Shown in pieces: positions 4,818-44,720 of a stretch of 64,000 bases of DNA. The DNA comes from Anaerolineaceae bacterium (GTDB lineage Bacteria; Chloroflexota; Anaerolineae; Anaerolineales; Anaerolineaceae), in the NCBI GenBank assembly GCA_049302815.1, contig JBAQMM010000252.1, positions 957 to 64,956 of the forward strand, given 5' to 3'. Positions within the stretch are counted from its first letter, which is position 1, and every line of letters begins with the position of its first letter. Position numbers and translations under genes: made by a program. The notes beneath the pieces were generated by a model, which had not been told where the DNA came from, did not search any database, and saw only the letters and a program-made list of their open reading frames with translations.

Positions 4818-5720
4818 ATGCATCAAAATAACGCATACCCGGGAGAGTCACGTTGGAAGGGTTGGCTGTACCTGCTGCCCGGTCTGCTGATTTACTTGGT
4901 CTTTACCTTCTACCCCATCCTCGATACGGTCCGCACCAGTTTTTTCCAGTGGGATGGCTTTAGCAATCAGCGTATTTTTATTGGCTTCGAAAATTACAAA
5001 ACCCTCTTCTCCGATCAGCAATTCACCAATGCTTTTTTGCACAACCTGGTATTCATCATTTTCTATTGCATCATTCCGATATTCATCGGTCTGCTATTAG
5101 CCTCGCTTCTCAGCCGCAACAAACTCCCGGGATTTACGTTTTTCAGAACAGTCTTGTTTTTACCCCAAGTGTTGAGCATGGTAGTGGTGGGCGTGATCTG
5201 GCGCTGGATCTTCAATCCCACTTTCGGTCCATTAAATGTGACCCTCAGCGCCCTGGGATTGAGTCACCTGACCAGAGCCTGGTTGGGAGATTTTTCCCTG
5301 GCGTTGCCAGCGGTAGGCTCCATTGGAACTTGGGTTGAATACGGCTTTTGCATGATCCTTTTCCTGGCTGGCATGCAGCATATCCCTGAAGAATATTATG
5401 AAGCCTCCAGCCTGGATGGCGCCAACGCCTTTCAGCAGCTCATTCATATCACCATTCCAGGGCTTCGATCGGAAATAGGTGTGGCGTTGGTCACCACGAT
5501 TATAGCTGCGCTGCGTGTGTTCGATCTGGTTTATGTCACCACCCGCGGGGGACCCGGAAACGCTACCCTGGTCACCGGTTTTCTGATTTACCGCTCAGCC
5601 TTTCTGCAGAACAAAATTGGCTACGCTGCCACCATCGCAACCGTTCTGATGCTGGTTATCCTGACCATTTCGCTACTCATCCGCAAGTATCAAGGTAAAA
5701 ATGAGGAAGACGGGGCATGA
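4818..5720 (+). CDS. Sugar ABC transporter permease (MalF/UgpA-like)
   Basis: 300 aa with multiple TM segments and an EAA-loop-like EASSLDGANAFQQLIHITIPGL. Confidence 0.88.
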   Translation: MHQNNAYPGESRWKGWLYLLPGLLIYLVFTFYPILDTVRTSFFQWDGFSNQRIFIGFENYKTLFSDQQFTNAFLHNLVFIIFYCIIPIFIGLLLASLLSRNKLPGFTFFRTVLFLPQVLSMVVVGVIWRWIFNPTFGPLNVTLSALGLSHLTRAWLGDFSLALPAVGSIGTWVEYGFCMILFLAGMQHIPEEYYEASSLDGANAFQQLIHITIPGLRSEIGVALVTTIIAALRVFDLVYVTTRGGPGNATLVTGFLIYRSAFLQNKIGYAATIATVLMLVILTISLLIRKYQGKNEEDGA

Positions 5721-6544
5721 AATACCACTGGAAATCCTTGCTTCCCCGTTACCTGGTATTGACTGTTTTCATGTTGCTGGTGCTCGTCCCAATCTCAGGG
5801 ATCATATTAAGTGCTTTCAAAACCGATACCCAGGTGATTCAGGGACCTTTCAGCCTGCCTACGACTTGGAACATCGAAAACTTTGTGCGAGCCTGGTCGG
5901 TCGGCCGTTTTAACATCTTCTTTAAAAACAGCGTCATCGTCACCACCGCAGTGGTGGCAGCCAGTGTTTTTCTATCCATCCTGACCGGTTACGCCTTTGG
6001 ATTACTGCCGATGCCCGGTAAAAAGTTCCTGTTCCCTTTGATGCTCCTGGGATATATGGTTCCATTTGAAGCTGTGATCATTCCCCTCTACAACTTCATG
6101 GACCTGCTGCATCTGCGGGATACCTACTGGGCTTTGATCCTCCCCCAAGTGGGCTTAAGTGTTTCCTTTGGCACACTCTGGATGACTTCTTTCTTTGAAA
6201 ACGTCCCCAGGGAATTGGTGGACGCCGCCACCATGGACGGCTGTACCCGCTGGCAGACCCTCTGGAGAGTCTTGTGGCCACTTTCCAAACCTGCCACGAC
6301 CACCCTGATCGTGTTGATCTTCATGTGGACCTGGAATGAATTCCTGCTCGCGCTAGTCATGGTGCAGGATGAAGCCATGCGCACCTTGCCGGTGGGGCTG
6401 GCATTTTTCCAGGGGAAATATTCAGCCAATATTCCCCTCCTGGCAGCCGGGGCTCTGATAGTCGCCATCCCAACCGTGATTGTCTATATCATCTTCCAAC
6501 GGTTTTTCATCAGGGGCATGCTGGGTGGCGCCGTAAAGGGATAG
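5717..6544 (+). CDS. Sugar ABC transporter permease (MalG/UgpE-like)
   Basis: 275 aa with EAA-loop DAATMDGCTRWQTLWRVLWPL. It overlaps the previous permease gene by 4 nt (ATGA). Confidence 0.88.
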   Translation: MKYHWKSLLPRYLVLTVFMLLVLVPISGIILSAFKTDTQVIQGPFSLPTTWNIENFVRAWSVGRFNIFFKNSVIVTTAVVAASVFLSILTGYAFGLLPMPGKKFLFPLMLLGYMVPFEAVIIPLYNFMDLLHLRDTYWALILPQVGLSVSFGTLWMTSFFENVPRELVDAATMDGCTRWQTLWRVLWPLSKPATTTLIVLIFMWTWNEFLLALVMVQDEAMRTLPVGLAFFQGKYSANIPLLAAGALIVAIPTVIVYIIFQRFFIRGMLGGAVKG

Positions 6545-6894
6545 AACAGTGGTATCTTGTCCACATGTAACGAGAGAGTTCTCCCATCGCCCCTTTGACA
6601 CAACAGTAGAATCACATGACGGGCTCAATCAATGCAATTGGAGAATATACCCAAGCTTGCTGCCCAAACGCCTTATTATGTGCTTCTTTCATGTTATATT
6701 GCGGGTAAAATGTCTTCCTGAAACAAAATTTTGGGTAATCTTCCGAAAGGACTATTTCAAGCTTACTTGAGCCGTCGAAAGTGCGCCTTCAATAAACACA
6801 ACCAGTGCCACAATAATTCCCAATATCCAGGAATTCGTAAATGTTGCCAGACTCATTACAAACAAATACCAGAATTCTGCGGGATCTGAACGGC

Positions 6895-7468
6895 TTAAGC
6901 GTTCCGCTCCAATCTGGTAAACCACAACCCCGTGACCAACATTCCCACCAACGAGATCCCATAAATCAGCATGGCAGCAGCGCTGCTGGGTAAGTCCCCG
7001 ACACTGAGATTTACCCCCCGGCAGGTTTTGGTCAGCAACGGAATAAAAGCGACTTCCTCACCCAGGTAAACTCGCACCAGGATATATTTCCCAGTGATCA
7101 AATTGTTTGCGTTAATGTCCCGGCTGAAAGTAAAACTCTCACCAGGCTCCAACTCCATCGTCTTTTCCCTCTTGACAAACCCATATGACTTCTCAGGATA
7201 TTATGGTCCGTAAAATCCGTACGGCTGTTTCATCAGAGGTATTGGAAGCTTTGGCGGTAACGATTTTGGTTTCACCTGAGCTAATGAAAACCGGGCAGGG
7301 CATTAAGGTCAATTTAGCCTCTATATTTTCAGAACGCCCCATGCTTCCAACATTTGGGGACCCCAGAATGCCATGATCTCATGGGAGGAATAGAGACAAA
7401 AGGTATTACTGACCAATAAGATGACGGCCAGTAGGATAAACAGGGAAGGTAAGATGATTTTTAACGAT
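6895..7468 (-). pseudogene. Possible frameshifted gene for a bitopic membrane/surface protein (only 6895-7158 is an intact ORF)
   Basis: Three consecutive minus-strand reading-frame pieces read like one protein. The first is a TM-like KIILPSLFILLAVILLV. The second is GETKIVTAKASNTSDETAVRILRTIIS. The third is EKSYGFVKREKTMELEPGESFTFSRDIN...GKYILVRVYL... with a C-terminal TM. Stops and frame changes separate the pieces. Confidence 0.3.
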
Positions 7469-7580
7469 TGGGCTTTGTTTCAAGGAAAAACCTCTACCTT
7501 AGAATTATGCATAGGATCATAGCGCTTGGAGCTGTTAAGTTCTTGTGTAATTTTTTGCCCGGGCTTATGTGCTGTTTACC

Positions 7581-7760
7581 CCAGCAATTCCCAATATGAA
7601 TTTGTCAAAATCCATCCAAAGTAATTTTCGTAAATCAAGTGACACACCCTATATGTTTTGATTCTCACAGGGTGTGCACTGGTTTGTGCACACCAGAAAG
7701 GCATGTTGAGGCAATGCTTGCCAGAATCACCAAAGAGCTTCTCCATATTGAGAATTGCGG
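7581..7760 (+). mobile_element. MITE-like non-autonomous element, copy 1 (180 bp)
   Basis: Perfect 8 bp direct repeats TGTTTACC lie at 7573-7580 and 7761-7768. The terminal inverted repeats are ccaGCAATTCcCAATATGa (left) and the reverse complement of the right end, ccGCAATTCTCAATATGGa. There is no ORF. The element shares a 60 nt left module (57/60) and a roughly 46 nt right module with the copy at 38421-38614. Confidence 0.7.
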
Positions 7761-7821
7761 TGTTTACCTGGACCGACCTGATTTGATGCTAAAATTGGAT
7801 CATCAATTTATGGAGGTTCTT

Positions 7822-8334
7822 ATGCCACAACAGCAATGGAAAACCGAACCAGCCTTGCAGCTGGACCCAGCCAAAAAGTACACCGCCATGTTTAAGACGG
7901 ATAAAGGTGATATCGGCGTCGGGCTTTACGCGGACAGGGTTCCCCACACCGTGAATAATTTTGTCTTCCTCGCGCGTCAGGGCTATTACGACAACACCAT
8001 CTTTCACCGGGTCATCAAAGACTTCATGGCTCAGGCCGGAGACCCAACCGGAACCGGTCGAGGAGGTCCTGGTTACCAGTTCAGAGATGAGTTTGACCCA
8101 AAACTTAAACACGACAAGGCAGGTGTGCTCTCCATGGCAAATGCCGGTCCGAATACCAACGGCTCCCAGTTTTTCATCACGCATGTGCCAACCCCCTGGT
8201 TGGATGGGAAGCACGCCATTTTTGGTCAGGTCATTTCCGGGTTGGATGTGCTGCTGTCCTTTCCTCCCCGTGACCCAATGCTGATCAATTCTCCGGCAGC
8301 AAAACTTCTGACAGTTGTCATCAATGAAGAATAA
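7822..8334 (+). CDS. ppiB: Cyclophilin-type peptidyl-prolyl cis-trans isomerase
   Basis: It has [32 protein letters not shown] and [12 protein letters not shown] 7822 is preceded by GGAGG at 7812-7816. The tracked GTG start at 7639 reads through the MITE and is unlikely. Confidence 0.9.
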
Positions 8335-8374
8335 TTGTCAAATTCCCAATCAAAACCATAAGGAGGCAACAATC

Positions 8375-9910
8375 TTGCGACAAATTGTGTTAGATGGGAA
8401 TTCACTTACGATCGAGGAGGTGCTCGAAGTCGCGCATCATCCGGAAACGGTAGTTAAGCTCTCCGACGCAGCCATAACAGGTATCCAGCGCTCTGCACAG
8501 GCGGTTGCCAGATTCGCTTCTGAAGGCAAAATTGCCTATGGGATCACCACCGGTTTCGGTGCTTTTAAGGATCACCTCATCTCCCCGGATCAAGTTGAAA
8601 AGTTGCAGGAAAACATCCTTTTAAGTCACGCGGTGGGTGTGGGGGAATATCTGGATGAGGTTGCCACCCGGGCGATGATGCTCATTCGGGCCAATACGCT
8701 TGCCCGAGGATATTCTGGCATTCGCCTCGAAACGCTCCAGCTTCTATTGGATTTGCTCAATCGCAACATCCTGCCGTTGATCCCGGAAAAAGGCTCACTG
8801 GGTGCCAGCGGAGATCTTGCCCCCCTGGCGCACATGGCTTTGCCGTTGATCGGTCAGGGGCAGGTGCGCTTTCAAGGGAAGAGCCTCCCCGCCCTGGAAG
8901 CTCTGACCAAAGCAGGTCTTGTTCCCATCCGCCTTTCAGCCAAGGAAGGCTTGGCGCTCACCAATGGCACCACCTTGATGACCGCCTTGGGTGTTTTGGC
9001 TGTAGACCAGGCTGAAAAATTAATGTCCACTGCCAACCTGGCAGCAGGATTGACTTTGGAAGCCCAAAACGGGACCTTGATGGCATTTGAAGATCCTATC
9101 CACAGCTTACGCCCCCAACCCTGGCAGCGCAAAACAGCTGCACAAATGCGCAGCATTCTGGAGGGCAGCCAACTCACCAGACCAGACGACCCCACCAATA
9201 TTCAGGATGCCTACACCCTGCGCTGCATTCCACAGGTGCACGGCGCCATCCATAGCGCCATCGACTACGCGAAAACCGTCATTATTATCGAGCTTAACTC
9301 TGTCACAGACAACCCATTGTTATTCCTGGATGAATACGAAGAAGCGCAGATTATCTCAGGCGGTAATTTCCACGGCGAACCTTTGGCTTTAGCGTTGGAC
9401 TTTCTCAACATCGCTATGACCGACCTCGGAAACATTTCCGAACGGCGGATTGCCAAGCTGGTGGACAACAAATCCGATTCGCATACTTATCCACCCTTTC
9501 TGACGGAATGCGGTGGTTTGAATTCCGGTTTCATGCTTTTACAGTACACCGCTGCTGCGTTAACCTCTGAGAATAAAACCCTTTCCCACCCTTCCAGCAC
9601 GGACAGCATCCCCTCTTCCGGCAACGTGGAAGACCATGTCAGCATGGGTCCCAATGCCGCCCTGCATTGCCGGGAAATCCTGAAGAATCTGTCCTCCATC
9701 CTTGCCATTGAACTGTTTTGTGGCGCCCAGGCGCTTGACTTCCGCCTGCAAAAAGACCCCAGCCAGAGAATGGGTAAAGGCACCAGCCAGGCATACCAGC
9801 TTGTGCGCTCCGCGGCACCCTTCATCCCGGCGGATACTTTGATGTATCCTTACCTTGAAAAGGTAACGGACATGGTTCGCGCTGGATTGTTTGCTTCAAT
9901 TTTGAGCTGA
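8375..9910 (+). CDS. hutH: Histidine ammonia-lyase
   Basis: It has the MIO-forming GSLGASGDLAPLAH, YGITTGFG, and LLSHAVGVG with the Ser-His pair typical of HAL rather than PAL/TAL. TTG 8375 lies 8 nt after AGGAGG. The in-frame ATG at 8315 is an alternative start. Confidence 0.9.
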   Translation: MRQIVLDGNSLTIEEVLEVAHHPETVVKLSDAAITGIQRSAQAVARFASEGKIAYGITTGFGAFKDHLISPDQVEKLQENILLSHAVGVGEYLDEVATRAMMLIRANTLARGYSGIRLETLQLLLDLLNRNILPLIPEKGSLGASGDLAPLAHMALPLIGQGQVRFQGKSLPALEALTKAGLVPIRLSAKEGLALTNGTTLMTALGVLAVDQAEKLMSTANLAAGLTLEAQNGTLMAFEDPIHSLRPQPWQRKTAAQMRSILEGSQLTRPDDPTNIQDAYTLRCIPQVHGAIHSAIDYAKTVIIIELNSVTDNPLLFLDEYEEAQIISGGNFHGEPLALALDFLNIAMTDLGNISERRIAKLVDNKSDSHTYPPFLTECGGLNSGFMLLQYTAAALTSENKTLSHPSSTDSIPSSGNVEDHVSMGPNAALHCREILKNLSSILAIELFCGAQALDFRLQKDPSQRMGKGTSQAYQLVRSAAPFIPADTLMYPYLEKVTDMVRAGLFASILS

Positions 9911-16597: not shown

Positions 16598-17377
16598 ATG
16601 GTCAAAGAACGAAAAAACTTCTTGATCGACATGGATGGCGTACTCATTCAGGGATCAATTTTAATACCAGGAGCGGATAATTTCATCAACTTGTTGAAAC
16701 AGGATAAGCGCAAGTTCTTGATTCTCACCAATAACTCGCTCTATACCACCCGGGATTTAGCCCATCGGCTTCAATTGACCGGTCTGGAAATTCCGCAGGA
16801 AAAGATCTATACCTCAGCCCTGGCAACAGCGTCCTTCCTGGAAAAGCAGAGACCCAACGGCACTGCCTATGTTATTGGTGAGTTGGGGCTGAGTGAAGCC
16901 CTGCATGCCATCGGCTATGTGCAAACCATGGTAAATCCTGATTATGTTGTATTAGGAGAAACCTTTTCTTACAATATCGAACAAATCACCATAGCCATCC
17001 GGCTGATCAATGCGGGTGCCCGTTTCATCGCCACCAATCCGGACCCAGTCGGCAATTCCGAAAATGGCATCGTCCCGGCTTGCGGCGCGATGGCAGCCCT
17101 GATCGAAAAAGCCACCGGGATTTCACCTTTTTATGTAGGAAAACCAAACCCCTTGATGATGCGGTCCGCCTTGAACTACCTGGACGTCCATTCTGAAAAT
17201 ACCATCATGATCGGTGACCGCATGGACACTGACGTGCTTAGCGGCATTTCATCGGGTTTGGATACTGTTCTGGTCCTCTCAGGTGTAACCAACCGCGCAG
17301 AAATTGAAAAATTCTCTTACCACCCCGACCATATCTTTAATTCAGTCGCGGATATTATTCCCAAAGAACTCGACTGA
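16598..17377 (+). CDS. HAD-superfamily subfamily IIA phosphatase (NagD-like)
   Basis: It has FLIDMDGVL (DxDG nucleophile motif), LTNNS, GKPNP and GDRMDTD. ATG 16598 follows a GGAG. The upstream TTG extension is unlikely. Confidence 0.85.
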
Positions 17378-35809: not shown

Positions 35810-37657
35810 TTACCTCTGCTCCCTGGCAAGAATTTGATCCTTGGCCCAAATGGCGGTCATCGGCAGACCGCCAATCTCCGTGATGGAGATCAGCTTCTCG
35901 TAATGTTGTGAATCTTCCAATTTCAAGATCGAACACAGTTGACCGTCGCGGTTTAATTCCAGGACATAACAGCGTTCGTGACTGCCAATAAAGCCATGCA
36001 CCTGATCGTTACTCGGCAGCGAGCGGATGCGCAAGTAATCCACTGGCAAGCCCGCCTCCGCCAGCATATCTTGAGCTTCGCTCATTGCCGGCTCGGTGGA
36101 GCCCATGCCGATCAGCCCAATCCTGGCACCTTCTTTTTCCCTGATTACCGGTGCAGGCAGGTCTTTCACCACATTTTGTAGCTTCTTCTTTATTCTGAGC
36201 AGCATATCTGTCCAGTTTTTGGGATCCTCGCTGTAATTGCCATAGACATCATGACCGGTACCCCGGGTGAAATACGGCGCGGCCGGGTTTTGATTGCCCA
36301 TGACCGTGCGGTAAGGAATCCCATCCCCATCAAAGTCAAGGTAGCGCCCCCATTTGCCTTCAAACCTGGCCATGTCTTCCTCCCAGATGATTTTCCCCCG
36401 GTCAATCGGTCGGTCTGGATAGTCGAATTTTTTGGTGATCCATTGGTTCATCCCCAGGTCCAGGTCACTCAAAACGAAAATGGGGGTCTGGTAATGCTCA
36501 GCCAGATCGAAAGCCTTCCAACCGAATTCAAAACATTCATTAACGCTCCCCGGGATAAGGATAACGTGGCTGACGTCCCCGTGTCCCAGATAATAAACCA
36601 TGGAAAGATCTCCCTGGGCGGTTCGGGTGGGCAAACCCGTGCTCGGACCAACCCGCTGGACATCCCAGATTACAACTGGTGTTTCGGTAAAGTATGCCAG
36701 ACCAACGTTTTCCGTCATCAGGCTGAGCCCCGGACCGGAGGTGGAAGTCATCGCCCTAAGCCCCGCCCAACCAGCGCCAATGGCAGCACCTATAGCCGCC
36801 AATTCATCTTCCACCTGTAAAATCGCGCAGGTGTTCTTACCAGATATGGGATCTTTGCGCAGATTTGGATTGTGAACGATCATGTCCTCCACCATGCTTG
36901 AGGCTGGCGTGATGGGGTACCAGGAGCAAAACTCCACCCCACCAAAAAGCGATCCCAAGGCTCCGGCATTGTTGCCGTCCGTCAGGATGCAATCATCGAG
37001 AGGAGGAAGTTGCCGCACATAAAAACGATCCCGCTTCTCAAGATTGGCAGCCGCCCACTCATATCCAAGCTTTACCATGTTCAAGTTCGATTCGGCCGCG
37101 GCAGGCTTGGAAGCAAAGTGTTTGCCTAAAGCATAGGCAATACTCTCCAGAGTGATGCCAAGCACTTGACCCACGATGCCAACATAAGTCATGTTCTCCA
37201 TATAATCGCGCATGTTGCGGGGAACACCCGCCTGTTTGACCAGGGATCGGATGGGCATGGGATAAAAGATCAGGTCACTTCTGGCATCTGCAGGTTTCTG
37301 GATATGATCCGCGTAAAAAATCACCCCTCCTTCAGGAAGATAAGTGAGATCCTCCAGGAAGGTTTCCTGATTCATCGCAACAATAATGTCATCGTAGGGT
37401 ACCCTGCCGATGTAACCCTTTTCTGATGCCCGGATCACGAACCAGGTCGGCAGCCCCTTGATATTGGAGGGAAAGATGTTTTTTCCTGAAGTAGGAATCC
37501 CCATTTTGAATAAGGCACCATACAGGGTACTGTTAGCAGTCGCACTGCCGGAGCCGTTTACGGTACAAATCGTCATGCAAAAATCATTGACGATCGGTGC
37601 CAATCCATCCTGAGATTTTGTGTCAGCCATAATCATTGCAAATTCTCTCCTCTTCAT
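35810..37657 (-). CDS. korA: 2-oxoacid:ferredoxin oxidoreductase alpha subunit (fused gamma-alpha type)
   Basis: 615 aa with an N-terminal gamma-like domain (TICTVNGSGSATAN) and a pyrimidine-binding domain (YPITPAS...). Confidence 0.9.
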   Translation of the reverse strand: MKRREFAMIMADTKSQDGLAPIVNDFCMTICTVNGSGSATANSTLYGALFKMGIPTSGKNIFPSNIKGLPTWFVIRASEKGYIGRVPYDDIIVAMNQETFLEDLTYLPEGGVIFYADHIQKPADARSDLIFYPMPIRSLVKQAGVPRNMRDYMENMTYVGIVGQVLGITLESIAYALGKHFASKPAAAESNLNMVKLGYEWAAANLEKRDRFYVRQLPPLDDCILTDGNNAGALGSLFGGVEFCSWYPITPASSMVEDMIVHNPNLRKDPISGKNTCAILQVEDELAAIGAAIGAGWAGLRAMTSTSGPGLSLMTENVGLAYFTETPVVIWDVQRVGPSTGLPTRTAQGDLSMVYYLGHGDVSHVILIPGSVNECFEFGWKAFDLAEHYQTPIFVLSDLDLGMNQWITKKFDYPDRPIDRGKIIWEEDMARFEGKWGRYLDFDGDGIPYRTVMGNQNPAAPYFTRGTGHDVYGNYSEDPKNWTDMLLRIKKKLQNVVKDLPAPVIREKEGARIGLIGMGSTEPAMSEAQDMLAEAGLPVDYLRIRSLPSNDQVHGFIGSHERCYVLELNRDGQLCSILKLEDSQHYEKLISITEIGGLPMTAIWAKDQILAREQR

Positions 37658-38337
37658 TCGAATCGCTGCTGTAATTCCGCCTTTTTGCGCTGTTTGAATA
37701 AGTCCATATGGGCTGTCAGTGCCTGAAATCCTTTTTCAAATTCACGCGCTTCCAACGCGTCAACAATGCGTTGATGGTAATTCCAGACTGTTTCCAGATA
37801 GTTTTGATCCAGGTAGTAGTTGACTTCCGCCTGTGCGTACAATTCCCAATAAGTCTCCAATATGCTGAGAACAACCGGATTGTTCAATCGCTGAAAGATG
37901 GTCAGGTGAAAAGCGCGATGTTCCGACTCGGGCACCTGGATCGGTTGCTCATGAATTTTCTGGGTGGCAGTCTTAACCAGCTGGTTAAGACTGGCGATAT
38001 CAGGTCTGTTGAGCAGCGCAGCCGCTTCGTACCAGTAACTTGTTTCAACATGTTTCCGCAGATCACCGTAAGACTCAAATAGGTGGGGCTGCACTTTGAT
38101 GCCATAACGCATGCCAAGTTCTAGGGGTTGGGTCAGGGAAAAAGCACGGGTTTGAATTCCCACCTTTGGTTTCACATCCACAAAACCAAGGCTCCTCGCC
38201 ACTTCCAATTGTTCCCGGACGCTTGAAACACTGATCCCCAGTTCCTGGCTCAACTCAGGAATACTTGGAATTTTGGCATGCTTCTTGGAAGCTTCAGCCA
38301 GATATTCAAGTAGATCAACTTTGATTTTTGGGTTCAT
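37654..38337 (-). CDS. GntR/FadR-family transcriptional regulator
   Basis: 227 aa with an N-terminal winged HTH (IPSIPELSQELGISVSSVREQLEVARSLGFV) and a FadR-type all-helical C-domain. It overlaps korA by 4 nt. Confidence 0.87.
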   Translation of the reverse strand: MNPKIKVDLLEYLAEASKKHAKIPSIPELSQELGISVSSVREQLEVARSLGFVDVKPKVGIQTRAFSLTQPLELGMRYGIKVQPHLFESYGDLRKHVETSYWYEAAALLNRPDIASLNQLVKTATQKIHEQPIQVPESEHRAFHLTIFQRLNNPVVLSILETYWELYAQAEVNYYLDQNYLETVWNYHQRIVDALEAREFEKGFQALTAHMDLFKQRKKAELQQRFE

Positions 38338-38420
38338 TGTGATTAATCTGATTAATCGTATTATTGATCTGGATTATACTTCTGTCTCATCGAATCAGTC
38401 AAGTTGTACAAGCATCTGGC

Positions 38421-38614
38421 GGCAATTCTCACTATGGATTTGTCAAAATCCATCCAAAGTAATTTTCGTAAATCAAGTGACCACTGACGAGGCTTATTTC
38501 ATCTAAACGAACAAACCGCTTGAAACACGCTTCGTCTGGACGAAAGTGATAGGAATATTGAGGTAATGTTGCCAGAATCCCCAAAGAGCTTTTCCATATT
38601 GAGAATTGCTGAGT
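38421..38614 (+). mobile_element. MITE-like non-autonomous element, copy 2 (194 bp)
   Basis: ATCTGGC direct repeats lie at 38414-38420 and 38615-38621. The terminal inverted repeats are gGCAATTCTCAcTATGGa (left) and the reverse complement of the right end, actcaGCAATTCTCAATATGGa. It shares a 44 nt perfect block (ATTTGTCAAAATCCATCCAAAGTAATTTTCGTAAATCAAGTGAC) with copy 1. Confidence 0.7.
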
Positions 38615-38782
38615 ATCTGGCCATTTTGTGAGATATATCGTTAAGACTCAGCCATTGGTCCCCTTGTCTGGCTCAATCAGGGTCAATTTGTCTGTATTTG
38701 ATGCGTTTCCTGTCGTTAAGCGCGTCTGTACGGTAAAATCTAAGTTCTTATTGCCATTATTGAGGCGTGTCATCATCTGTCT

Positions 38783-40537
38783 ATGAGTATTAGCGAATTT
38801 TCAATTCCATTCCGGTATAAAACCAACCGCTCCACTCCATTCACTTGGATCTGGTCTCATACGCTTCATCATTGGGCAATCTTCGTGGTTGCCATGATTG
38901 GTGCCATTGGCAATGCTGCCCTCGCGTCTGTTCCAGCAGTTCAATTTGGCACCGTTTTTACCAACCTCACCAGTGGCTCGCCCGCCATGCCCACCATCGT
39001 GCGCTCCGCTGTGATCATCGGGTTATCCCAGGTTGCCCGCGGTGTGTTCCAATTCCTGCGCAACTATGGCTTTGAGGTCACCGCTCAGCGAATCGAGAGG
39101 GATGTGCGGGAGGAGTTTTACATCAGTCTGCTTGGCAAGAGTATGACTTTTCATTCCCTGCAATCCATCGGAGACCTGATGGCGCGGGCGACTAATGATA
39201 TTCGGGAGGTCAATTTCCTCTTCAGCCCCGGCATCAATATGGTCTTCGGTTCCATCAATTTTCTTTTCATCCCGCTGATCATTGGACCTCAAATTCATCC
39301 CGCCTTGATTCTGACCCCATTGCTTTTCATCATTGCCTACTTCATTTCGATCGTTCACTACTTGAGAATTCTCAAACCCATCACGGATCGGGTTCGATCC
39401 AGTTTTGGATTGATGAACAGCCGTCTGGCGGAAGCCATTGACGGCATCGAGACTGTCAAAGCCGCCGCCCAGGAAGACTCTGAGATCAAGCTGTTTGAGA
39501 AAAATATCAAATCCTACCGGGATGCCAGTGTTGAACAGGGTGATGTGGAAGCCAAATTCCTTCCGTTGCTCCTGCTTGCCATGGCGATGGGTTTCGGTTT
39601 GCTGCACGCTTTGCTGCTCTTCCAAAAAGGTGAAATTCCTTTGGGAGGGGTCATTTCTTATTTCAGCGCCCTGTCCCTGCTGGGGTTCCCCACCAATACC
39701 TCCATTCACTCGTACTCACAGATTTCTCTGGGTATTGCCGGTGCTCGCAGGTTATTGAGCGTCATGAACCTGGAGAACAACCTGGATCAGAACGATGCCG
39801 GCTACAACCAGCCCATGCACGGAGAGGTCGTCTTCAATAATGTCAACTTTTCCTACAATCAAAAAAAGACTATCCTGGAGCATATCAATTTTCAAGTATC
39901 CCCGGGTCAGACGGTTGCCATTGTGGGTCAAACCGGCTCTGGAAAAACCAGCCTGGTGCGCCTGATCAACCGAACTTATGACCCTGATCAAGGTCAGGTT
40001 TTGATCGATAACCACGATTTGCGGGAATGGAAGTTGGACAGCCTGCGCAGTCAGATTTCCATTATCGAACAGGATATTTTCCTTTTTTCGAAATCCATTC
40101 ACGAGAATATTGCCTTCGGAAAGCCCGATGCGACCCGAACAGAGGTCGAAGAGGCCGCCAAAAAAGCCCAGGCACATGAGTTTATTAGCACCATGCCAGA
40201 TGGCTATGACACGGTGATTGGCGAGCGCGGGGTAACCCTATCCGGCGGTCAGCGCCAAAGGATCGCTCTTGCTCGGGCATTTTTGACCGACCCAAAAATT
40301 CTCATCCTGGATGATTCAACCAGTGCGATCGACAGCAAAACCGAAGATGAAATTCAAAAAGCCATCCAAACCGCCTCGGAAGGACGGACAACTTTCATTA
40401 TTACCCATCGGCTTTCACAAATCCGTTGGGCTGATCAGATCATCGTCATGCGTCAGGGAACGGTGTCAGACATCGGAACTCATGCTGAATTGATGCGCTC
40501 CTCCAGGTCGTATCGCAATATTTTCACGGAAGCTTAG
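38783..40537 (+). CDS. ABC exporter, fused permease/ATPase (heterodimer partner 1)
   Basis: 584 aa with a 6-TM domain, Walker A GQTGSGKTS, signature LSGGQRQR and Walker B ILILDD. Confidence 0.9.
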   Translation: MSISEFSIPFRYKTNRSTPFTWIWSHTLHHWAIFVVAMIGAIGNAALASVPAVQFGTVFTNLTSGSPAMPTIVRSAVIIGLSQVARGVFQFLRNYGFEVTAQRIERDVREEFYISLLGKSMTFHSLQSIGDLMARATNDIREVNFLFSPGINMVFGSINFLFIPLIIGPQIHPALILTPLLFIIAYFISIVHYLRILKPITDRVRSSFGLMNSRLAEAIDGIETVKAAAQEDSEIKLFEKNIKSYRDASVEQGDVEAKFLPLLLLAMAMGFGLLHALLLFQKGEIPLGGVISYFSALSLLGFPTNTSIHSYSQISLGIAGARRLLSVMNLENNLDQNDAGYNQPMHGEVVFNNVNFSYNQKKTILEHINFQVSPGQTVAIVGQTGSGKTSLVRLINRTYDPDQGQVLIDNHDLREWKLDSLRSQISIIEQDIFLFSKSIHENIAFGKPDATRTEVEEAAKKAQAHEFISTMPDGYDTVIGERGVTLSGGQRQRIALARAFLTDPKILILDDSTSAIDSKTEDEIQKAIQTASEGRTTFIITHRLSQIRWADQIIVMRQGTVSDIGTHAELMRSSRSYRNIFTEA

Positions 40538-44137: not shown

Positions 44138-44149
44138 AATCTTAAGATT

Positions 44150-44312
44150 ACTTGGTTGGGAAGAGCCCTGCCCTCAGGCACCGAAGGGGCAAACCTGCAA
44201 ACAACAGGTGAAACTCTCAGGTAAACAGACCCAATCAATGGCTCCTCTGAAGTTGCCAAAATCAAGACGTGAATGACAGAGGCACATGTATCCATGTGCT
44301 TCTTTTAATTTT
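44150..44312 (+). promoter_or_regulatory. Glycine riboswitch (single aptamer) with terminator expression platform
   Basis: The aptamer at 44154-44234 is closed by UUGGG/CCCAA and contains GGGAAGAG, CACCGAAGGGGCAA and CUCUCAGGUAAACAGAC. The terminator is GCACATG-tatc-CATGTGC (44282-44299) plus TTCTTTTAATTTT. It is directly upstream of gcvH. Confidence 0.85.
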
Positions 44313-44333: not shown

Positions 44334-44720
44334 ATGATTTTCCCAAAAGATTTGAAGTACACAAAAACTGATGAGTGGGTAAAAGTTGAAGGTGGAATCG
44401 CCACCATTGGAATTTCCGATTATGCCCAATCCTCCCTCTCGGACGTGGTCTACCTCGAATATGCCATGGAACCTGGTGATGTTGTCAAAGCTGGAGACAA
44501 CCTGGGAACGGTCGAATCGGTCAAAGCCGCATCTGACGTGAGCATCCCGGTCAGTGGTACGGTGACTGAAATCAACGAAGCACTCCCTGACACTCCAGAA
44601 GTGCTGAACAAGGACCCCTACCAGGCTGGTTGGTTGATCAAACTCAAGCTGAACGACCCTGATGAGCTTCAGACGCTGATGGATTCGGAAGCCTATGAAG
44701 CTTACTGCCAGGAACGTTAA
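44334..44720 (+). CDS. gcvH: Glycine cleavage system H protein
   Basis: 128 aa with the lipoyl-lysine motif VESVKAASD. Confidence 0.95.
   Translation: MIFPKDLKYTKTDEWVKVEGGIATIGISDYAQSSLSDVVYLEYAMEPGDVVKAGDNLGTVESVKAASDVSIPVSGTVTEINEALPDTPEVLNKDPYQAGWLIKLKLNDPDELQTLMDSEAYEAYCQER

Follow-up and report, generated by a model that had tools for sequence, protein, structure and literature searches.

What is the short sequence with repeated ends that lies directly upstream of the ppiB-like gene and hutH in an uncultured Anaerolineaceae bacterium? In the 64,000-nucleotide stretch of contig JBAQMM010000252.1 analysed here (the window), the octamer TGTTTACC occurs at 7573–7580 and again at 7761–7768, and only two further occurrences were found in the 64 kb on both strands. 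An earlier note on this DNA had read the octamers as a perfect 8 bp target site duplication (TSD) around a 180 bp MITE (miniature inverted-repeat transposable element). We conclude that the segment now bounded at 7582–7760 is very probably a prokaryotic MITE, a DNA transposon of the non-autonomous kind. It is small and without a transposase gene, has terminal inverted repeats (TIRs) and is flanked by a TSD of constant length, 9 bp, which are the features by which MITEs are recognised. The reading is carried by this anatomy, by a second copy in the window, by the absence of the element from the corresponding spacer in relatives and by the presence of the same TIR in elements elsewhere that have perfect 9 bp TSDs.

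The octamer is indeed found on both sides and the inverted-repeat ends are real, but the boundaries had to be revised. When the related copies described below were used as a template, copy A was found to occupy 7582–7760 (179 bp), elements of this family having the ends 5'-CAGCAATTCYCAATATGRA...TG-3' and a 19 bp TIR. The TSD is 9 bp with 8/9 bases identical, rather than a perfect 8 bp. The 1 nt indel that had been proposed between the two ends (cca versus cc-) disappears because the related copies have CA...TG ends and a 9 bp TSD. The region around copy A is made up as follows.

7573–7581, no strand: left TSD of copy A, TGTTTACCC, matching 7761–7769 at 8/9 positions with the first 8 identical.
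7582–7760, plus strand: probable MITE, copy A, 179 bp, 41% G+C against 50% for the window, bounded by CA...GG where the family consensus is CA...TG.
7582–7600, plus strand: left TIR, CAGCAATTCCCAATATGAA, identical at 16/19 positions to the right TIR when the latter is read as its reverse complement.
7601–7643, plus strand: left arm inside the TIR, common to copy B (repeat family D1, 95% over 60 nt).
7644–7699, plus strand: centre peculiar to copy A, containing two perfect hairpins that overlap, not alignable with the centre of copy B.
7700–7741, plus strand: right arm inside the TIR, common to copy B (repeat family D3, 91% over 46 nt).
7742–7760, minus strand: right TIR, reverse complement CCGCAATTCTCAATATGGA, with the terminal dinucleotide mutated (GG for TG).
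7761–7769, no strand: right TSD of copy A, TGTTTACCT.
7783–7795, plus strand: conserved box TTGATGCTAAAAT, a putative extended -10 promoter of ppiB, kept in relatives L002, L013, L014, L016 and L017.
7822–8334, plus strand: cyclophilin-type PPIase gene (ppiB-like), PF00160 at E = 2e-47, start ATG 7822.

Within the TIRs, the 15-mer GCAATTCCCAATATG is found at 7584–7598 on the plus strand and its counterpart GCAATTCTCAATATG at 7744–7758 on the minus strand. When up to two mismatches were allowed, GCAATTCCCAATATG was matched six times in the window where 0.42 matches would be expected, a number reached in none of 100 shuffles, and four of the six are the ends of copies A and B. The other two, weak TIR-like half-sites at 17052 and 37839, which are single and within long ORFs, were taken as chance. 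The left arm of copy A includes the small hairpin-forming sequence ATTTGTCAAAAT. The two hairpins that the earlier note had placed in the centre are present, one formed by ACACCCT/AGGGTGT (7644–7650 and 7669–7675) and the other by GGTGTGCAC/GTGCACACC (7671–7679 and 7686–7694). Besides the TIR, a short direct repeat, AATCC(AT/C)CCAAAG, is common to the left and right arms, at 7611–7624 and 7725–7737 in copy A and at 38449–38462 and 38576–38588 in copy B. It may be a binding site in a subterminal position, or due to chance.

The second copy that had been claimed within the window was recovered 31 kb away, where 38422–38609 matches copy A in a BLASTN comparison (E = 4e-26). Its features are as follows.

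38411–38419, no strand: left TSD of copy B, AGCATCTGG, matching 38612–38620 at 8/9 positions.
38420–38611, plus strand: probable MITE, copy B, 192 bp, TIRs matching at 17/19 positions, left dinucleotide mutated (CG for CA).
38612–38620, no strand: right TSD of copy B, AGTATCTGG.

Copy B lies in a separate intergenic region, with neighbours unrelated to those of copy A, between a divergent gene for a GntR/FCD regulator (37654–38337, minus strand) and an ABC exporter gene (38783–40537, plus strand). It is 18 nt upstream of TTGACT-18-TATAAT, a promoter-like site for the regulator gene. Two copies are thus documented within the 64 kb window, at unrelated loci, both with a G+C content of 0.40–0.41 against 0.50 for the window, and the same 19 bp end is found at all four termini. 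Of the direct repeats that occur twice in the window, the two arms (families D1 and D3) are the longest. On the left approximately 62 bp are shared between the copies (58/62 identical) and on the right approximately 57 bp (91% identity over the 46 nt of D3), while the centres, 56 bp long in copy A and 73 bp in copy B, bear no relation to each other. Distinct centres of this sort are unlike the product of a simple burst from one master copy. The pattern may have arisen by two independent internal deletions of one parent IS with differing breakpoints, leaving either remnants or two MITE subfamilies, or by replacement of the interior. Each copy has one mutated terminal dinucleotide, 2–3 TIR mismatches and one TSD substitution, and both are therefore probably old, decayed fossils that can no longer be mobilised.

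The position of copy A was compared with the corresponding region in relatives, using 80 loci retrieved with the PPIase (1.37 Mb in total). The order ABC permease-PPIase-HutH is kept in the best-matching relatives compared. The spacer between the permease gene and ppiB is 1,237 bp in the window, approximately 270 bp in L002, the closest relative (83% PpiB identity), and approximately 114 bp in three Mesolinea-like MAGs; among the best-matching relatives examined it ranges from 114–270 bp (L002, L006, L008, L011) up to several kb (L013, L023, L025, L034). The 1.37 Mb of the 80 loci contain no occurrence of the element or of its TIR (3 mismatches in 17 allowed), and homology to the relatives picks up again at 7780, just to the right of the element. 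The spacer upstream of ppiB in L002 cannot be aligned to that in the window, and no precise empty site was found among the relatives. In a collection of 15 billion proteins, PpiB and the permease have no counterpart with an identity of 90% or more, and their 90% clusters have one member each. Exact-protein look-ups for a strain-level empty site yielded only two short Logan contigs, neither covering the element, and no exact-protein record was found for the GntR regulator or the ABC exporter. A reconstructed empty site would read ...GGGCTTATGTGCTGTTTACC[C/T]GGACCGACCTGATTTGATGC...

The two Logan contigs belong to the same population (SRR28062806 and SRR28062805). L098 corresponds to window positions 4867–7364 (99.76%) and L001 to 7785–9408 (100%), so that the first stops 218 nt to the left of the element and the second restarts 25 nt to its right, with the 420 nt between them, including the element, unassembled. 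The break points do not coincide with the ends of the element, and the gap may reflect low coverage or other strain variation rather than the repeat. The element may nevertheless help to explain why the short-read contigs do not span 7365–7784. The permease-ppiB spacer as a whole is marked as a variable region. It includes approximately 1 kb of extra DNA (6545–7572) between the stop codon of the ABC permease gene and the element, which is missing at this position in the relatives. Two minus-strand ORFs within it, at 7342–7193 (49 aa) and 7158–6895 (87 aa), correspond to one continuous frame in L006 (6449–6027; 52% and 48% identity). As they are in different frames here, they may represent a frameshifted small gene; the pair has no match to a Pfam family, and the 87 aa ORF is called as a gene on L098.

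The insertion bears on how ppiB is annotated. In a longest-ORF reading, the gene acquires a 61-codon N-terminal extension from GTG 7639, which the earlier note had judged spurious, placing the start most probably at ATG 7822. Our comparison supports this. In the relatives the gene begins at the orthologous ATG, and in-frame stops are found 18–36 nt upstream of it in 6/9 examined and 87–120 nt upstream in L002 and L009; GGAGG is found at 7812–7816, 6 nt before ATG 7822; and the NCBI model (MFZ3071456.1), on a 65.7 kb MAG contig, is 170 aa long. A 231 aa version starting at GTG 7639 was on record nowhere in an exact-protein look-up. The true start of ppiB is thus ATG 7822, and the extension is an artefact that the insertion explains.

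The only upstream sequence conserved across the Anaerolineaceae relatives is a box, TTGATGCTA(A/C)AAT, found approximately 30 nt upstream of the PPIase ATG. In the window this box (7783–7795) reads as an extended -10 element (TGn-TAnAAT), and we infer from the motif that it functions as a promoter. The right TSD of copy A ends 13 nt upstream of the box, which would place the insertion at about the -35 position of this putative promoter, and a modest effect of the element on transcription of ppiB-hutH is therefore possible. Consensus scans of the element copies detected no outward or internal promoters and no terminators.

Elements with the same TIR were found in other organisms. A metagenome scan with a gapped pattern, consisting of two 15-mers 130–160 nt apart with nothing else specified, recovered five contigs representing three distinct elements of 174–194 bp. 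Short BLAST searches of plasmids with the element end identified an unannotated 131 bp element in two plasmids of Oscillatoria acuminata PCC 6304 and in plasmids of Phormidium yuhuli AB48 and Anabaena cylindrica PCC 7122. Its four occurrences are as follows.

NC_019700.1, 44692–44822: unannotated 131 bp element (locus L087).
NC_019694.1, 2566–2696: unannotated 131 bp element (locus L088).
NZ_CP098612.1, 20910–21040: unannotated 131 bp element (locus L089).
NC_020157.1, 13323–13453: unannotated 131 bp element (locus L099).

The cyanobacterial elements are 70–98% identical to one another, a unit kept across three genera, and this conservation of the 131 bp form indicates that miniatures of this TIR family do spread. 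In all, eight related copies representing six distinct insertions were found. All of the related elements begin with CAGCAATTC and end with GAATTGCTG, and their interiors are unrelated to that of the window element. A perfect 9 bp TSD (AATATTTGA, CGCACACCC, CCTTAAAGC or GTGAGGCAT) flanks four of the six distinct insertions (L083/L086, L084, L088 and L099), compared with 8/9 for the window copies. As neither the CA/TG ends nor a 9 bp TSD formed part of the search patterns, both provide independent confirmation. One metagenomic element, at 584–776 of L082 (contig Ga0123336_10228658), is AT-rich, 193 bp long and has a TIR of approximately 28 bp with no TSD (3/9), and L087 and L089 are likewise without one. 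The missing TSDs could be due to recombination between copies or to the age of these insertions.

An exact 26-mer of the conserved arm had no matches in the GTDB representative genomes and none in the JGI metagenomes, and the TIR string was absent from the searchable literature but for unrelated primers. No described element has sequence in common with it, and it constitutes a new family of an already familiar type.

The coding capacity of the element is negligible, as the earlier note had also observed. The longest ORF inside it is 56 aa (7576–7746, minus strand), and its ORFs have no Pfam match and no homologue among 5.8 billion protein clusters. A minus-strand translation beginning MEKLFGDSG (14 further residues not shown) resembled fused N- and C-termini and was considered as a relic of a transposase gene; it was rejected, having no Pfam match and no protein sharing three 5-mers with it in the 5.8 billion clusters. 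Seven other stop-free frames of the arms, compared with the same clusters, also gave nothing.

Three other explanations of the locus were weighed against a MITE. Coincidence of inverted and direct repeats has in its favour that isolated 15/17 inverted repeats 100–300 bp apart arise by chance 0.55 times per shuffled window. However, an inverted repeat accompanied by a flanking repeat of at least 8/9 was seen in 0/40 Markov shuffles of the window, the arms of the two copies match at E = 4e-26, and the 19 bp end is present at four termini within the window and again in six distinct elements from other sources, of which four have perfect 9 bp TSDs. These recurrences refute chance, to which we give practically no credence. 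A structured cis-regulatory RNA or a small-RNA gene serving ppiB-hutH, with the flanking repeats coincidental, would account for the strong interior hairpins, for the minus-strand folding z-scores of -3.9 in copy A (-1.9 on the plus strand) and -2.9 in copy B, and for a location immediately upstream of the promoter and start of ppiB. The comparative evidence speaks against it. The earlier note had held that conservation at the orthologous position with compensatory changes would point to such an RNA, and neither of these hallmarks of a riboswitch or cis-regulatory RNA was found: the element is absent at that position from the 80 relatives' loci, and the TIR mismatches (C opposite A, A opposite C) are uncompensated. 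Moreover, copy B is upstream of unrelated genes, the centre carrying the hairpins is the very part not conserved between the copies, 9 bp flanking duplications accompany both copies and relatives in other phyla, and an Rfam search of both copies produced nothing credible even at E = 1. We consider an RNA origin very improbable.

The strongest rival is that a full-length IS lost its interior in place after each insertion, leaving the two copies as remnants that never moved as miniatures. Two independent internal deletions of one parent, with different breakpoints, predict exactly what is seen, namely approximately 62 bp shared on the left and 57 bp on the right around unrelated centres of 56 and 73 bp, with copy A keeping more of the left end of the parent and copy B more of the right. 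On the other hand, the parent IS was not found in the window, the relatives' loci, the plasmid DNA examined or IMG/VR, and the subterminal sequences contain no transposase N- or C-terminus recognisable from Pfam or the 5.8 billion protein clusters. Related elements elsewhere are likewise 131–194 bp and non-coding, including the 131 bp unit found across three cyanobacterial genera. Remnants formed in place are hence improbable, though less so than an RNA, and a MITE remains the preferred reading.

If the element is a MITE, an autonomous relative should carry the same ends. A fuzzy TIR search detected no autonomous IS with CAGCAATTCTCA-type ends in the window or in the 1.37 Mb from relatives. 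The same type of search revealed only MITEs in pOSCIL6304.01 (1–50,000), nearly all of pOSCIL6304.02, pANACY.02 (1–150,000) and a 6 kb stretch of the Phormidium plasmid. An IS5-family transposase gene on pOSCIL6304.01 was considered as the parent and rejected, as it is without such ends, and no IS4 transposase is listed in pSYSX 1–50,000. Two TIR scans of IMG/VR produced 6 and 30 single matches, numbers close to the chance estimate, and those examined were within phage structural or other genes.

The nature of the ends offers a lead to the transposase. Transposases of the IS4 family are DDE enzymes with a YREK motif. Members of the ISAs1 family have CAGGG ends and direct repeats of 8–10 bp. 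The IS4Sa subgroup of the IS4 family has ends of the form CA------T and also direct repeats of 8–10 bp (PMC2266710, Table 1), though no matching end was found in the supplements to that paper. The window element resembles both groups in its 5'-CA termini, its TIR of approximately 19 bp and its 9 bp duplication. It differs from IS4Sa in having C at end position 9 in every copy, where the consensus is T, and it shares only CAG of the CAGGG of ISAs1. Our guess would be a parent from the IS4 family (IS4Sa) or an ISAs1-like IS, offered from the end sequences as a lead and not as membership.

Among known systems, the closest likeness is to the prokaryotic type II MITEs, in which conservation with other elements is confined to the TIRs (reviewed in PMC10969869). 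The window element is like them in being less than 200 bp long, with imperfect TIRs, a TSD of fixed length and no gene, in its intergenic location near promoters and in a G+C content below that of the host. The type II category fits because only the TIR is common across the wider family. The element departs from typical members in that only two copies are documented in the window and no autonomous partner was found in the searches. In sharing arms of approximately 60 bp but not their centres, copies A and B show a pattern intermediate between the two types, I and II. MITEAba12 of Acinetobacter baumannii, a 113 bp element with 16 bp imperfect TIRs, a 9 bp TSD and no CDS, for which ISAba12 is the proposed parent, has been caught transposing into hns (PMC6382973). 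It is comparable in architecture, in TSD length, in occurring beside or within host genes and in having few copies per genome. There is, however, no sequence similarity between the two, the window copies look decayed, and the hosts belong to Chloroflexota and Pseudomonadota, respectively. The 131 bp elements of cyanobacterial plasmids share the terminal 12–19 nt (CAGCAATTCTCAWTWTG) and the 9 bp TSD, perfect in 2/4, but are shorter, have unrelated interiors and belong to another phylum (Cyanobacteriota). The Correia elements duplicate TA and have TIRs of approximately 26 bp. In Neisseria these elements (Correia/CREE) are small, bounded by TIRs and found just upstream of genes, to which they supply promoters or IHF sites (PMC10969869). 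The window element is also a small TIR element just upstream of genes, but it has a 9 bp TSD, a 19 bp TIR and no internal promoter-like site in consensus scans.

On the MITE reading, a DDE-type transposase encoded elsewhere would have bound the 19 bp TIRs (5'-CAGCAATTCTCAATATGGA) and moved the element by cut-and-paste or replicative transposition; both mobilisation in trans and the type of transposase are inferred from the form of the element. Insertion would have been into a 9 bp staggered cut, the repair of which would generate the flanking duplication TGTTTACC(C/T). The element would have landed in the divergent promoter region that lies upstream of ppiB-hutH, and the in-frame extension of the ppiB ORF from GTG 7639 would be a by-product. 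The sister copy at 38420–38611 would have been inserted likewise, just upstream of the promoter-like site of the GntR/FCD regulator gene.

The CAGCAATTCTCAWTWTGRA-type end is now known from Chloroflexota, Cyanobacteriota and unassigned metagenome contigs. A more far-reaching proposal, which we think unlikely, is that this 19 bp end defines a superfamily of miniature elements spanning phyla, in which any short DNA so bracketed is mobilised by a lineage of transposases that has escaped description or recognition. New interiors would then have been acquired repeatedly, in a manner like that of 'pack-MITEs', and the hairpin-rich centres would be selected cargo, such as regulatory modules beside promoters. 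The occurrence of one 19 bp end with unrelated interiors in two phyla, its autonomous partner not found where searched, is mildly unusual. It leaves the current understanding of bacterial mobile elements unchallenged, and the practical value of the finding lies mainly in annotation and bookkeeping. The end sequence together with the 9 bp duplication forms a compact signature that could serve for cataloguing an unannotated family of MITEs in Anaerolineaceae and cyanobacteria, and for tracing the transposase of that family.

The only Rfam match in the window is at a distance from both copies. A glycine riboswitch aptamer (RF00504) was detected at 44148–44242 on the plus strand (61.9 bits, E = 2e-10), and the first of a series of long ORFs on the same strand begins approximately 450 nt further downstream, at 44695.
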